DNA of 64,000 bases from Thermoplasmata archaeon (GTDB lineage: Archaea; Thermoplasmatota; E2; JACPAO01; JAHFTW01), in the NCBI GenBank assembly GCA_034667725.1, contig JAXDQS010000001.1, forward strand, positions 192,001 to 256,000. The letters are read 5' to 3'. Below the pieces are notes generated by a model. It ran no database searches and had not been told where the DNA came from. It was given only the letters and a program-made list of their open reading frames with translations. Shown piece by piece: positions 42,216 to 48,653 of this stretch. Position numbers and translations under genes: made by a program. Positions within the stretch are counted from its first letter, which is position 1; every line of letters starts with the position of its first letter.

Positions 42216-43151
42216 GTGCGGTTCGCGCCCTGGATCCTGGTCGCCCTGCTCGCCGGCTGCACGGCCCCCGCCGCGGACGACGCCACCCTCACGCCCCCGC
42301 TGGCCCCGGACGCCGGCGCGGGCCTCCAGGTGCCTGCCTGGGCGCTGCGCGACTGGTGGTCCTACCGCGTCGGCGACGAGGTCGCGACCTACGTCGTCAC
42401 CCAAGACCTCGGCGCAGCGTGGCAGATGGACACCGACTCCCAGGCGCGCGCCTTCCAGGACGCCCGCGACGACGTGAGCCGCCTCGGGCCGCAGCGCAAG
42501 GCCGACCTCGCCGGCTCGCAAGGCGACGACGCCGTGCAGTTCTTCCGGTGGCCCCTTGCCGCCGGCGACAACTGGACGACGCCCTGGGACGGCGTCGAGA
42601 TGGGCATCACGGTGCTGGCCGTCGACGGCCCGCTGGCCCGCCTGGAGGCCCGCAACGCCACCGGCGGCCTCGTCTACACCTACACCTACGACGCCGGCGC
42701 GCGCTGGTTCCGCGACCTGCGCCGCCTCGCCGCCGACGGCACCGAGCTGGTCCGCCTCGAGCTGTCCGCCTCCGGCCGCAACTGGACCGGCACCGCGGTG
42801 CGCTGGGACCTCGCCTCCCTCGCGGCAGGCGCCGGGGCGGCCAGCACTGCCGTCCCGTTCAACGTCCCAGAAGGAGTGACCGACCTGTGGCTGGCCTACA
42901 CGGCCCAATGCAGCGGCGGCCAAGGCGGCTACGCCATCGCGGTCAAGCCCGCCGACCCCGCCGCCGTCACCGCCACCGAAGGCTACGCCAACCAAGGCCC
43001 CTGCGGTGACGTCGCGTTCGCGGAGGTCATCCAGGAGGCGCCGCGCCCCGGCCAATGGGCGTTCGCCGTGAGCATGGGCGGCAACCCGGCCGACGCCGCG
43101 TTCAGCTACGAGGTGCTCCAGCGCACCCTCCGCTTCGTCCCGGTCGGCTGA
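42216..43151 (+). CDS. Lipoprotein, paralogue B
   Basis: Lipobox LLAGC. Homologous to 40503-41465. Confidence 0.8.
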   Translation: MRFAPWILVALLAGCTAPAADDATLTPPLAPDAGAGLQVPAWALRDWWSYRVGDEVATYVVTQDLGAAWQMDTDSQARAFQDARDDVSRLGPQRKADLAGSQGDDAVQFFRWPLAAGDNWTTPWDGVEMGITVLAVDGPLARLEARNATGGLVYTYTYDAGARWFRDLRRLAADGTELVRLELSASGRNWTGTAVRWDLASLAAGAGAASTAVPFNVPEGVTDLWLAYTAQCSGGQGGYAIAVKPADPAAVTATEGYANQGPCGDVAFAEVIQEAPRPGQWAFAVSMGGNPADAAFSYEVLQRTLRFVPVG

Positions 43152-43188
43152 CGCCAAGCTTTTCGGGGGCGGCCCCGATGGGCCCGCC

Positions 43189-43476
43189 ATGCGCCCCGCC
43201 CTCGCGCTCCTGGCCATCGTCCTCGCCCTGCCCACCGCCACCGCCATGGCCGTCCCGCTGCCCGTCGTCGTCCACCTCGACGCCGACCCCGACTGCACGG
43301 ACTGCATCGGCGTCGAAGCCGGCGTCGGCGCCTTCATCCCCGGCTGCCTCGACTGCCCCGCCGTGGGCGCCTCCGCCGCCGCCGAGACCGACGGCACCAC
43401 CACGACCGCCACCGTCCGCGTCTGCTACGCCAGCTTCTACGTCCTCTGCCTCGTGGACGAGACGGTCACGGTCTAG
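43189..43476 (+). CDS. Small secreted Cys-rich protein
   Basis: Signal peptide, two CxxC motifs and two further Cys. Confidence 0.6.
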   Translation: MRPALALLAIVLALPTATAMAVPLPVVVHLDADPDCTDCIGVEAGVGAFIPGCLDCPAVGASAAAETDGTTTTATVRVCYASFYVLCLVDETVTV

Positions 43477-43817
43477 GACGTCCGGCTCTCCACCACGACC
43501 ACCTCGGGCCACCCCTGCATCGGGTAGGACTCCGCCCAGGCGTCCACGTCGAACGAGACCGTCTGCCCGACGCCCACGCTTTCGAGGGTGGTGGGCGGGC
43601 AGGAGCCGTCGTGCTCCCGTCGCAGCAGCCTGGCGCCCGAGAGATGCAGCACCGCCGGCTCGCCGCCGTCCAACTGGACGCGCAGCGACGACTCGCCCAC
43701 CTCGGTGACGGTGGCGCGCTGGCCAGGGCGGACGCAGGCCTCGCCGGGCAGGGGCTGGTCGGCGAGGCAGCCGGCCATCAGGACCGCGACGGCCAGCAAA
43801 CCCAGGAGGCCACGCAT
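43473..43817 (-). CDS. Small lipoprotein
   Basis: Lipobox in MRGLLGLLAVAVLMAGC. C-terminal AESYPMQG motif. Confidence 0.65.
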   Translation of the reverse strand: MRGLLGLLAVAVLMAGCLADQPLPGEACVRPGQRATVTEVGESSLRVQLDGGEPAVLHLSGARLLRREHDGSCPPTTLESVGVGQTVSFDVDAWAESYPMQGWPEVVVVESRTS

Positions 43818-43828
43818 GGAGGCCGCCG

Positions 43829-44068
43829 TCAGAGGAGCTCGCGGCAGCCGCGGCCGGCCTCGCAGCGGGTCACGGTGACCCCGTCGCCATCCGCGCAGGC
43901 GATGGTCGCCGTGCCACGGCCCTGGCCATGGTAGACGCAGACGGACTCCTCGCCCGCGTCGATGCCGGTGCAGGCGTCCTGGGCGACGCAGTGGCCGACC
44001 CACTCCCCGGACGCGGGGACGGCGAAGGCGGTCAAGGCGAGCAAGGCGATGGCAGCAAGGACGCGCAT
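43829..44068 (-). CDS. Small secreted Cys-rich protein (in frame with the stop-less TFB ORF)
   Basis: Signal peptide [21 protein letters not shown] followed by 6 Cys. Confidence 0.6.
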
Positions 44069-44093
44069 CGGGGTGGCATGGCGGGCGCCGCGC

Positions 44094-44380
44094 TTAGGGG
44101 TTTGCCAGCCTTTCGGCCAGCCCCCTGAGCCTCGCTGATGCTCGCTCAGGGTCCGGCGTCGCCTTCGGCGTGCCTGCTCGCAGAGCGCGGCCTGTCGGAC
44201 CTCGCCTCCTCGCTGCGGCTCAGAGGACGATGTCGATGTCCAAGCGCTCTGCCCCTTCCTGCCTTCGCTTCTCTCTGGCTGGAAGGTCCGCTCGCCTTCG
44301 CTGCGCTCGGCTCGCATCCACCTTCGGCTGAGGCCTTCGGCCTTCAGCACGATGTCGATGTCCAGCCTTTCGGCCAGCTC
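44094..44380. repeat. Palindrome-rich segment containing repeated copies of the tfb 3' end
   Basis: 17-bp direct repeat CCAGCCTTTCGGCCAGC at 44105 and 44362. GATGTCGATGTCCA at 44229 and 44351. Many CTTCG/CGAAG hairpins. Confidence 0.8.
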
Positions 44381-45295
44381 CTTGTACCGGTTGCGGATCG
44401 TGACCTCGGTCACGCCCGCGACCTCGGCGACCTCGCGCTGGGTGCGGCGCTCGCCCGACAGGATGCTCGCGATGTAGATGGCGGCCGCGGCGACACCGGT
44501 CGGCCCCCTTCCACTCGTCAGTTCCCGGTCGGCGGCCTGCTTCAGGATGTCCACCGTCTTGGCCTGGACGTCGCCCGACAGCTTCAGCTCGGAGCAGAAG
44601 CGGGGGATGTAGTCCTGGGGCGCGGTCGGCATCAGCTTGAGCTTGAGCTCGCGGGCGATGAAGCGGTAGGTGCGGCCGATCTCCTTGCGGGAGACGCGGG
44701 ACGCGTCGGCGATCTCGTCCAAGGTGCGCGGCACGTCGCACTGGCGGCAGGCGGCGTAGAGCGCGGCGGCGGCGACACCTTCGATGGAGCGGCCGCGGAT
44801 GAGGTTCTTCGTGACGGCGCGCCGGTAGACCATGGCCGCCGTCTCGCGGACGTTGCGGGGCAGGCCCATGCCGGAGGCCATGCGGTCCAGCTCGGAGAGG
44901 GCGAAGGCGAGGTTGCGCTCGGTCGCGTTCGAGACGCGGATGCGGCGCTGCCACTTGCGCAGGCGGTAGAGCTGGGCGCGGTTGCGGGTCGGGATCGACT
45001 TGCCGTAGGAGTCCTTGTTCTTCCAGCCGATCATGGTGGAGAGACCCTTGTCGTGGATGGTGTAGGTCATGGGCGCGCCGACGCGGGCGCGCTTCTCGCG
45101 CTGCTCGGAGTCGAACGCGCGCCACTCGGGGCCTTGGTCGATGAACGCGTCGTCCAGCACCAGGCCGCAGGTCTCGCACACCATCTCGCCGCGCTCGTAG
45201 TCGGACTGGATGTGGTCCGACCCGCACTCCGGGCAAGTGGTGATCTCCTCGATCTTCTGCTGCTCCTTCTTCTTCGGCTTCGCGATCTCGACCAT
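44345..45295 (-). CDS. tfb: Transcription initiation factor IIB (conserved part; no stop at the usual end, frame open to 43829)
   Basis: Zn ribbon [55 protein letters not shown]. Confidence 0.95.
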
Positions 45296-45349
45296 GGAAA
45301 ACCGGGGTCCCGGGCGGCTGCGGGGGGCGCCGCCCTGTCTGGGTTTGCT

Positions 45350-45425
45350 GTGATAGCAATAAACAGTTAAGCCTTTCCCAGTTTTTCCATGGCGCTTCAT
45401 ATACTTGGACCAAGTTTTGACTTGA
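45350..45425. promoter_or_regulatory. AT-rich divergent promoter region (tfb / PMT-like gene)
   Basis: AT-rich island with TATA-like GTATATGAA and TTTATT on the minus strand. Confidence 0.5.
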
Positions 45426-45511
45426 AGCTGTCGTCCGGCACTGCCCCCGGGCCCCGCGCGGTTCCATAAAAAGAGAACCTTCATGGAAGGCAGCCCCCTC
45501 GGCCGCGCGCC

Positions 45512-46639
45512 GTGGACCTGTCGCGCCTGCCCGAGCCCACGTCGCAGATCGCGCAGGAGCGGGTCGCGCCAGGCCTCCCGTCCCGCAACTTCCTGGTCGC
45601 CGTCGCCGTGCTGGCGACCCTGTTCCTGGTGGTCGCGCTCTGGCTGTCGCGCTTCCCCGCCAACCACGTCCTGCCGGCGGAAAGCGGCGCGGCCCCGCTG
45701 CCGGGCTCGTTCACCTACCCGATCGGGCTGCACCCCGCCCGCATCGTGAGCGCGGTCTTCGGCGCCGCCGCGGTGGCCGCCACCTGCCTGGTCGCGCGCC
45801 GCCTGCTGCACAACGACACCGCCGCCCTGCTCGCCGGCGGCCTGGTCGCGCTCGACCCTGCCCTCCTGGCCGTGTCCCGGCTGGCCCTCCCCGACACCCT
45901 CGCCCTCGCCTCCCTCCTGGCCGCCCTCGCCTGCTTCCTGGCCATCCCGGTCTCGATCCATTGGCTGGGCGCCGGCCTCCTTGCGTTCGCCGCCCTCGCC
46001 GAACCGCGCACCCTGCTCTGGAGCCTGCCGCTGCTGTGGATGGTGCTGATGCGCGGCCACATCTACGCCGCCCCGCGCCACCTCACCCTCGCCGCCCTTC
46101 AGACCGTGGCCGCCCCGCTCTTGGGCGTCCTGCTGCACCTGCTGACCAACGGCGGCATCGTCGGCCTCCCGTGCCGGGTCCCCATCCAGTCCAGCCTGGC
46201 GCTCACCTCCAGCATCGGCTACGGCGGCGTCGTCGCCATCCACAACCCCATCACCTGGTTCGGCGGCCTCGGCGCCATCCTCCTGCTGGGCGGCACCGCG
46301 CTTGCCATCGTCGCCCGCCAGTTCCGCATCGCCCGCCTCCCCGGCCGCGTCCAGATGCGCCTCGCCGACCCCCTCCCCGGCACCCACGCCCGCATCCTGT
46401 GGCTGCTGCTGCTCGCGGTCCTCGCCCCCTTCCCCATGGTGTGGCTGCCGCTGTTCGCCATCGCCCTGGCCTCCGGCATCAGCCTGCTCGCGGAGGACGC
46501 GCCCGGCTTCGGCGCCGTGGTCGCGCTCGTGACCCTGCTGTTCGGCGTGCTCGGCCTGCTGCGCGTCTGGGGCCTGGTCTCCGGCACCGGCGGCCAAGTC
46601 ACCAGCCTTGTCCCCTGGAGCCACGTCATCGGCTGCTAG
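45512..46639 (+). CDS. GT-C fold membrane glycosyltransferase-like protein (PMT/GT39-like)
   Basis: Multi-[26 protein letters not shown]...SRLALPD and HNPITW resemble the PMT family. Confidence 0.6.
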
Positions 46640-48394: not shown

Positions 48395-48575
48395 CCGCGC
48401 CGACTTCGCTGCGGCGAAGCCGGCGTCCCCTGCGGCCGTCCTGACGGCCGGCCGCAGGGTCCGCATCGCTTGCCCGGCGCTTGCGCGCGGGCCCGCTCGC
48501 TACGCGGCTTCGATCCCGCACACCTGCCTCATGCGCTCGGCCTGCGGCGCGCTCCGCGCGGCCGCTCGCCGGCGT
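48395..48575. repeat. Palindrome-rich tRNA trailer containing an antisense T-arm copy
   Basis: Hairpins CGCCG.CTTCGC..GCGAAGCCGGCG and CCCTGCGGCCG..CGGCCGCAGGG. 48500-48519 is complementary to tRNA positions 48591-48611. Confidence 0.65.
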
Positions 48576-48582
48576 CAGTGAG

Positions 48583-48653
48583 TGCGGGTAGCGGGAATCG
48601 AACCCGCGTAGGCAGCTTGGGAAGCTGCAGTCATACCATTAGACCATACCCGC
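48583..48653 (-). tRNA. tRNA-Gly(CCC), intronless, CCA not encoded
   Basis: GCGGGTA-TG-GTCTAATGGTATGAC-T-GCAGC-TTCCCAA-GCTGC-CTAC-GCGGG-TTCGATT-CCCGC-TACCCGC-A folds as a cloverleaf. Confidence 0.95.

Follow-up and report, generated by a model that had tools for sequence, protein, structure and literature searches.

The WHO elements at the FBA1 gene of Torulaspora and Lachancea yeasts are homing elements whose unit comprises the element together with the gene 3' end upstream of it, with older gene ends displaced downstream; each unit encodes its own endonuclease, replaces ~400 bp and is several kb long (Coughlan et al. 2020, PMC7282813). A comparable arrangement lies behind the gene for transcription factor B (tfb) of a Thermoplasmata archaeon, in the window considered here, the whole stretch of 64,000 nucleotides that was analysed. 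In both systems an essential gene has been affected repeatedly at a single position close to its 3' end, both consist of a full-length gene followed by units and left-over 3' fragments that can decay (two units and two ends at tfb), and in both the ends are recoded between alleles. Unlike WHO units, the tfb cassettes measure 90–100 nt, contain no ORF and no endonuclease, concern only 6–20 codons and form fold-backs that include the gene end.

Integron cassettes, units with an imperfect attC hairpin, follow one another head to tail from a fixed site, and the attC hairpin, which varies in sequence while its structure is kept, recombines as a folded single strand. The tfb cassettes are likewise stacked units ending in imperfect hairpins that differ in sequence while keeping their structure, and for them recombination of a folded single strand is plausible. 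They depart from integrons in that they carry no more than the final codons of the neighbouring gene as cargo and in that arrays occur behind many housekeeping genes, with no single platform; neither an integron integrase nor attI was found. Archaeal elements of the SSV and pNOB8 types, and e14 or phage 21 at icd, integrate at the 3' end of a tRNA or protein gene and bring a substitute end with them. These integrative elements are kilobases long, encode an integrase and are bounded by att repeats that are identical over the crossover core. The tfb cassettes share with them direct repeats of the gene end flanking the insert and a gene left intact, but their inserts have no ORF or recombinase and their repeats are recoded at synonymous sites. 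The genome (90% complete) yielded a single tyrosine recombinase, on a contig other than that of tfb.

PATEs, which derive from IS200/IS605, and REP/REPIN sequences are moved by Y1 transposases or RAYTs and leave neither a target duplication nor a copy of the neighbouring gene. Like them, the tfb cassettes are small, ORF-less and rich in hairpins, occur immediately downstream of genes and are probably processed in single-stranded form; unlike them, they are flanked by direct copies of 17–48 nt, one set for each tfb insert. The 90% complete genome yielded no match to the Y1 (HUH) transposase family PF01797, for which positive controls matched, and none to the TnpB zinc-ribbon family PF07282. A diversity-generating retroelement also differs from the locus, where the changes between copies 1 and 2 of the tfb end (among them C/A, A/G, G/C, C/T and G/C) are not confined to template adenines and are all synonymous, and where the neighbouring reading frames encode TFB, a small secreted protein and a lipoprotein, with no reverse transcriptase. 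A literature search for archaeal MITEs at stop codons returned no description of such elements, and the locus is apparently an undescribed, ORF-less variant of 3'-end-associated cassette elements.

Where tfb ends

The following features, all on the minus strand, bear on the end of the gene and on the reading frame beyond it.

44345–45295, minus strand: tfb coding sequence, 317 aa, with a zinc ribbon and two TFIIB cyclin repeats
44342–44344, minus strand: the codon directly after the last sense codon, AAG here and TAG (stop) in other assemblies
44320–44323, minus strand: bases 44323 and 44320, which differ from the JGI contig, both A/T transversions within the antisense arm
43829–44068, minus strand: gene for a small cysteine-rich protein of 79 aa with a signal peptide, in the read-through frame

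Pfam families Zn_Ribbon_TF and TFIIB are matched by a JGI protein identical to the 317-aa TFB, and this is the sole TFB gene found in the genome (90% complete), a single gene with two TFIIB repeats. In the window's assembly, the frame past the AAG codon that follows …DIDIVL is open to 43829, and the earlier note accordingly described a tfb without a stop at its normal end, running into a small secreted protein. The open frame stands for this assembly; the missing stop and the fusion do not, given what other assemblies contain. JGI metagenome contig Ga0467041_0000057 encodes the exact 317-aa TFB and is identical to the window over 2,451 nt up to the tfb end, a stretch comprising the upstream membrane-protein gene, the intergenic region and the whole of tfb, after which TAG replaces AAG. 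The three differences between this contig and the window fall within 25 nt of a hairpin-rich stretch, and all are A/T transversions. A Logan contig from soil run X1, probably the source run, also carries A on the plus strand at 44344 (T on the minus strand; depth 7.3/7.3), the JGI and X1 contigs being independent assemblies that possibly come from one sample and are not necessarily independent data. In the related contig Ga0299906_10008355 (L089), the last 36 nt of tfb are identical to copy 1 and are followed by TAG. Comparison of tfb ends in related genomes, which the earlier note had proposed, extends this result across the family: all 38 of the TFB ends read, from the loci of 29 relatives, stop directly after the tail, which is close to the ten-residue tail of this TFB in all 38 and identical across most of the family. 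A stop directly after DIVL is thus what the comparison finds, produced by substitution (TAG) and not by the indel that the earlier note had envisaged.

Judged from these assembled contigs, tfb is almost certainly intact in the organism, with TAG as its stop codon, and AAG at 44344 would be either an assembly error or a rare variant. Because fold-back 1, described below, is about equally stable in both versions (-18.9 vs -18.1 kcal/mol), the AAG allele could be a real variant. The small cysteine-rich gene is a separate gene that shares the read-through frame only by coincidence. It sits between the tfb array and the lipoprotein gene and is not there in G007, G009 or L089, which indicates a lineage-specific addition; an origin as an older tfb relic was considered and rejected (best local alignment 20, shuffled mean 19).

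Most species of the genus have two or three tandem tfb paralogs ~1 kb apart, seen in G001, G003, G005, G006, G008, G011 and G012 (loci L011, L014–L016, L018, L022 and L027); this genome has a single tfb. Within that gene, a 25-nt patch at 44503–44527 (minus strand) carries nine synonymous differences from the closest relatives, including a TCC-to-AGT serine switch, AGG GGG codons and a GGAAGGGGG run resembling cassette 3' ends. The patch is complete only in G022, with parts in G005 and G011, and in sequence it looks like a short gene-conversion patch. A conversion tract at the tfb end itself was also considered and set aside: the last 140 nt are nearest G007 and G001, with no clean boundary beside the cassette.

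Two hairpin cassettes and the extra tfb ends

The array behind tfb is made up of the following parts, listed in the direction of transcription.

44345–44384, minus strand: copy 1, the in-frame tfb end encoding a 13-residue region, reference for both repeats and 5' arm of fold-back 1
44253–44341, minus strand: spacer of cassette 1, 89 nt, no ORF, supported by folding, a 33-nt match and module detection
~44333–44309, 44315–44283 and 44289–44253, minus strand: parts of cassette 1, respectively the arm antisense to copy 1, the 33-nt core and the 3' hairpin
44220–44260, minus strand: copy 2, from the repeat search, a degenerate K-E-L region, the ten-residue tail (44252–44223) and TGA (44222–44220)
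44121–44219, minus strand: spacer of cassette 2, 99 nt, no ORF, with its 3' hairpin, GGACC to a G run, at 44154–44121
44094–44127, minus strand: copy 3, a K-E-L-A-E-R-L region including the 17-bp exact repeat, a 23-nt copy of 91% identity

The recurrence of the tfb end 122 and 257 nt downstream, reported in the earlier note, is confirmed in the sequence. The first recurrence, in copy 2 (44252–44220), lies 122 nt downstream in the -1 frame relative to tfb and contains seven base changes in six codons, every one synonymous, followed by TGA. The second rests on a 17-bp exact repeat (44378–44362 and 44121–44105, spacing 257 nt), past which copy 3 diverges to read ...LAERLANP and TAA (44096–44094); copy 3 is a truncated or decayed relic, and its counterpart in G017 has decayed as well. 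The repeat search extends the homologies to 48 nt for copy 2 (71% identity) and 23 nt for copy 3 (91%), and both copies share one start point in tfb, the K-E-L codons. The longest exact stretches common to the tfb-end copies are 15 and 17 nt, the remainder being recoded.

That the extra ends differ only synonymously follows from the near-invariance of the tail across the family, since any recently functional tfb end would encode the same peptide whatever its codons. Plain duplication with neutral decay fits poorly, because it predicts roughly equal numbers of non-synonymous and synonymous differences. The suggestion that the copies serve as switchable C-termini fares no better: copy 2 encodes the same peptide as copy 1, and use of copy 3 would delete the DIDIVL tail, which varies little from this form across the 38 ends. 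The extra copies are best read as displaced or spare gene ends that are not translated.

The two spacers, neither of which holds an ORF, share a three-part build. Each unit opens with a long imperfect fold-back: the coding gene end supplies its 5' arm, the start of the spacer supplies the antisense arm, and predicted ssDNA folds place the loop at the tfb stop codon. Next comes a short core carrying GNA-triloop mini-hairpins of the GCC-GAA-GGC type, and the unit closes with a 3' hairpin running from GGACC to a G run, immediately after which the next gene-end copy begins. Cassette 1 additionally has a hairpin with a GGCC-GAA-GGCC loop, and its 3' hairpin also begins with GGACC and ends in a G run; in cassette 2, the arm antisense to copy 2 contains a 9-bp perfect stem and is accompanied by a GCC-GAA-GGC mini-hairpin. 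All parts (fold-back, GNA-loop hairpins, G-run hairpin, and recoded end with stop) are thus present in both units. Arms 1 and 2 cannot be aligned with one another, nor can the two 3' hairpins, and the 33-nt core of spacer 1 is 97% identical to a locus on contig 7. As ssDNA, the cassette 1 unit is predicted to fold with -29.6 kcal/mol (z -2.97) and the cassette 2 unit with -39.1 kcal/mol (z -3.0); fold-back 1 alone reaches z -4.8. The 3' stem of the 3' hairpin repeats the AAG-GAG region of tfb in degenerate form, giving a layout of gene end, inverted copy around the core, and gene end. An Rfam scan of 43000–46000 at E up to 1 gave no match. We consider it probable that tfb ends normally and that two nested, ORF-less cassettes of ~90–100 nt stand behind its stop, with the extra gene ends as spare or displaced copies that are not translated.

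Gene-end copies elsewhere in the genome and in relatives

The arrangement at tfb is one of many in this genome. An unbiased DNA-level scan of 2,095 gene ends returned 22 with a downstream copy (at least 22 of 30 bases identical), against one in the reverse-complement control, an excess far beyond chance; together with a separate peptide scan, it places the pattern at no fewer than 20 gene ends other than that of tfb. Mismatches between gene end and copy number 22, 16 and 58 at codon positions 1, 2 and 3, those at the first two positions lying mostly at the 5' edge of the copy. Nearly all copies have a stop codon at the homologous position, and the spacing of copies at these other loci represents all three frames. 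On contig 7, for instance, a KH-domain gene ending EIDEVQVI and stop is followed, behind spacers of the same type, by VQVI and stop and then by EIDEVQVI and stop. Cassette parts like those at tfb were found on contigs 2, 7, 8 and 10 and behind a tRNA-Gly gene.

The latter gene, tRNA-Gly(CCC) at 48653–48582 (minus strand), is followed by a cassette of the same build, the array region spanning 48419–48653. Within this cassette, the T-arm and acceptor region of the tRNA recur in antisense, and a 3' hairpin runs from GGACC to a G run at ~48462–48427; a perfect 9-bp direct repeat, GACGCCGGC, flanks the cassette at 48576–48568 and 48427–48419. The flanking repeat is non-coding and identical on both sides, resembling a target duplication. 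Behind a housekeeping gene with a variable tail ('KISLGF'), homologous cassettes occur in five species of the genus (G002, G007, G008, G011 and G012; loci L056–L063). Their distal copies preserve the tail variant of their own lineage (KITLGF, KIKLGF or KIQLGY), with the lineage's residue conserved (K in G011, Q in G008) despite differences at 2–5 synonymous sites, a combination that points to donors, if any, among close sister lineages or to another constraint on the copies. The proximal copy of this gene matches the cassette-free G009 at 29 of its last 30 nt, with no jump in identity at the gene end, and to judge from these alignments it looks vertically inherited.

No single sequence marks the cassettes. 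The core 9-mer GAGCGGACC occurs 33 times in the genome and 68 times in a reversed-sequence control, with only 4 of the 33 in cassettes, and from this lack of enrichment the family is defined by its architecture. A hairpin pattern search returned 214 modules, mostly noise. One candidate, the ribosomal stalk tails (…AAAGLGALFG) of two adjacent genes at C4:13069–13406 (plus strand), proved a false positive with no cassette. A dispersed repeat family containing GGGAATCTTCCGAATCTG occurs at more than 10 loci on C3, C5, C7 and C10 (e.g. C7:17881–18050, plus strand), often in tandem at spacings of 74–76 or 115–118 nt; it is unrelated to the gene-end cassettes.

At tfb itself, 7 of the 32 family genomes, representing four genera, have an intact second end 117–141 nt downstream, and decayed copies occur in three more (G017, G018 and G041). 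Arrays contain up to three copies in G022 and G045; G045 has two identical 138-nt units, and G022 has a 64-nt exact repeat covering gene end, stop and left arm. The 3' hairpin of cassette 2 has homologues among the modules that follow tfb in G015 and G017, so that with the present genome (G000) three genera are involved. In every relative with a cassette, the upstream tfb end has its own stop. Empty sites are found in G009 and L089, where the lipoprotein gene starts 3–5 nt after the tfb stop. The tfb of L089 is 87% identical in nucleotides, and its TAG is followed by three bases and then by the lipoprotein start codon. Its last 36 nt, a stretch too short for a tree, show no differences from the window where ~3.6 are expected, and closer relatives show 2–3.

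Origin of the arrays

The small element targeting the tfb 3' end and supplying replacement ends, which the earlier note had put forward as one possibility, fits the two fold-back cassettes, their recurrence and the empty site. The extent of its unit is indicated by the arms. In four cassettes on contigs 2, 8 and 10, arm scores against the preceding and the following copy are 35/12, 28/12, 24/14 and 24/16, and in G041, G046 and G047 the arms change together with the codons used by the preceding copy, even for the decayed relic in G041. These comparisons, like the 64-nt exact repeat of G022, fit a unit made of a gene end and the arm after it. At tfb, the arm scores are 14 vs 12 with a shuffled maximum of 14, hence no better than shuffled sequence, and the fold-back there rests on the ssDNA folds and not on the arm alignment score. 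As to the order of copies, copy 1 equals the native end of the cassette-free relative L089, and copy 3 shares the unusual codons of copy 1 in its 5' part. Distal copies vary from intact to decayed (G017, G018, G041, G045 and copy 3 here), and arrays do not always run from intact to decayed, the distal copy being intact in G017. In a test for the newer copy on three other genes across the genus, synonymous sites were saturated, leaving no power.

In a mechanism consistent with these features, related lineages would trade units, each comprising a gene end, its arm and a 3' hairpin, and the units would pile up at a single position within the gene. Recombination would act on folded, probably single-stranded DNA, as in homing elements that replace 3' ends or in integron cassettes, with catalysis supplied in trans by a putative enzyme. 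In the most likely order, the newest unit would stand beside the gene body and older ends would be pushed downstream to decay. Movement of the cassettes is something we infer: the sequences compared contain no filled/empty polymorphism within one species and no direct mobility event. The fullest version of the proposal, which we advance tentatively as possible but rather doubtful, is that these are non-autonomous, self-folding cassettes that home to the final codons of essential genes, the only tfb among them, carrying a working gene end and target-complementary arms that guide a trans-acting recombinase or nuclease, with integron-like stacking and movement between archaeal lineages.

The arrays might also arise with no mobile element at all, from native 3' hairpins, from duplication, unequal crossing-over or template switching that builds the array locally, and from homologous import that recodes the in-frame copy. 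The identical 138-nt units of G045 and the 64-nt repeat of G022 establish that tandem amplification does occur, and the direct-inverted-direct layout around the core, the 9-mer repeat at tRNA-Gly with its likeness to a target duplication, and the identity of copy 1 to the native end of a cassette-free relative can all be accommodated by local events. The units at tfb, however, were not born as identical duplicates, since their arms and 3' hairpins are unalignable with each other; arms track the preceding copy, where import into the gene alone predicts the opposite; homologous 3' modules stand behind tfb in three genera (cassette 2 of G000, G015 and G017); the 33-nt core also lies behind an unrelated gene; and differences fall almost entirely at third codon positions, whereas neutral decay would spread them about equally over the classes. 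A purely local origin consequently appears unlikely. Still less probable is a genuine loss of the stop in the sequenced strain, by which TFB would gain a 171-aa C-terminal extension through the cassettes into the secreted-protein gene. The AAG codon, the frame open to 43829 and a fold-back that remains equally stable despite three differences, as a natural variant might, speak for this reading, but TAG stands in two other assemblies of the same organism, the three A/T transversions cluster in 25 nt after 2,451 identical nt, the gene is the only TFB gene found in the genome, and all relatives read have a stop at this position.

Two further explanations address the duplication itself. An assembly chimera of alleles from co-occurring strains, a concern already raised in the earlier note, is suggested by the origin of the genome as a metagenome bin and by the breaks of other assemblies at ~44286–44296, beside the 33-nt core common to contig 7. 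It is nonetheless very improbable: one Logan contig spans 43800–44285, from the cassette 1 hairpin through copy 2, cassette 2 and copy 3 to the downstream gene, while the JGI contig and a second Logan contig span copy 1 and the left part of cassette 1, so that both halves of the array are covered except for 44286–44295; the join between them is backed by the synteny of tfb and the lipoprotein gene in relatives; the shared words of 15 and 17 nt are too short to link a de Bruijn graph; and the same layout recurs in many independent genomes. Scarcely credible, finally, is an intervening sequence, the 122-nt or 257-nt spacer being removed from mRNA or DNA. Removal of 122 nt would join the frames and yield a normal protein, and the spacer is highly structured, but other assemblies and all cassette-bearing relatives have a stop at the end of the upstream copy, and the distances between copies at other loci represent all three frames. 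The earlier note could find no convincing bulge-helix-bulge, and a search at spacings of 122, 135 and 257 was likewise empty, with 3 candidates elsewhere vs 6.1 expected from shuffles; there is no Rfam match, and the DNA contigs contain no joint, nor do the RNA contigs, all of which come from relatives.

With tfb ending at TAG and two cassettes behind it, the sole general transcription factor B of this archaeon would be neither fused, spliced nor switchable, and the apparent stop loss is unfit for annotation. Cassette arrays of this kind break short-read assemblies and invite mis-calls of gene ends. With its empty site and near-invariant target tail, the locus offers a clear example of a poorly understood process, in which gene-less hairpin cassettes appear to reshape housekeeping genes and tRNAs repeatedly at their 3' ends, in an uncultured family of soil archaea, while leaving the genes unbroken. 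If the cassettes are mobile, they would constitute a homing-like element with no gene of its own, and they would point to an enzyme that acts on structured DNA and to lineages that often exchange gene ends.
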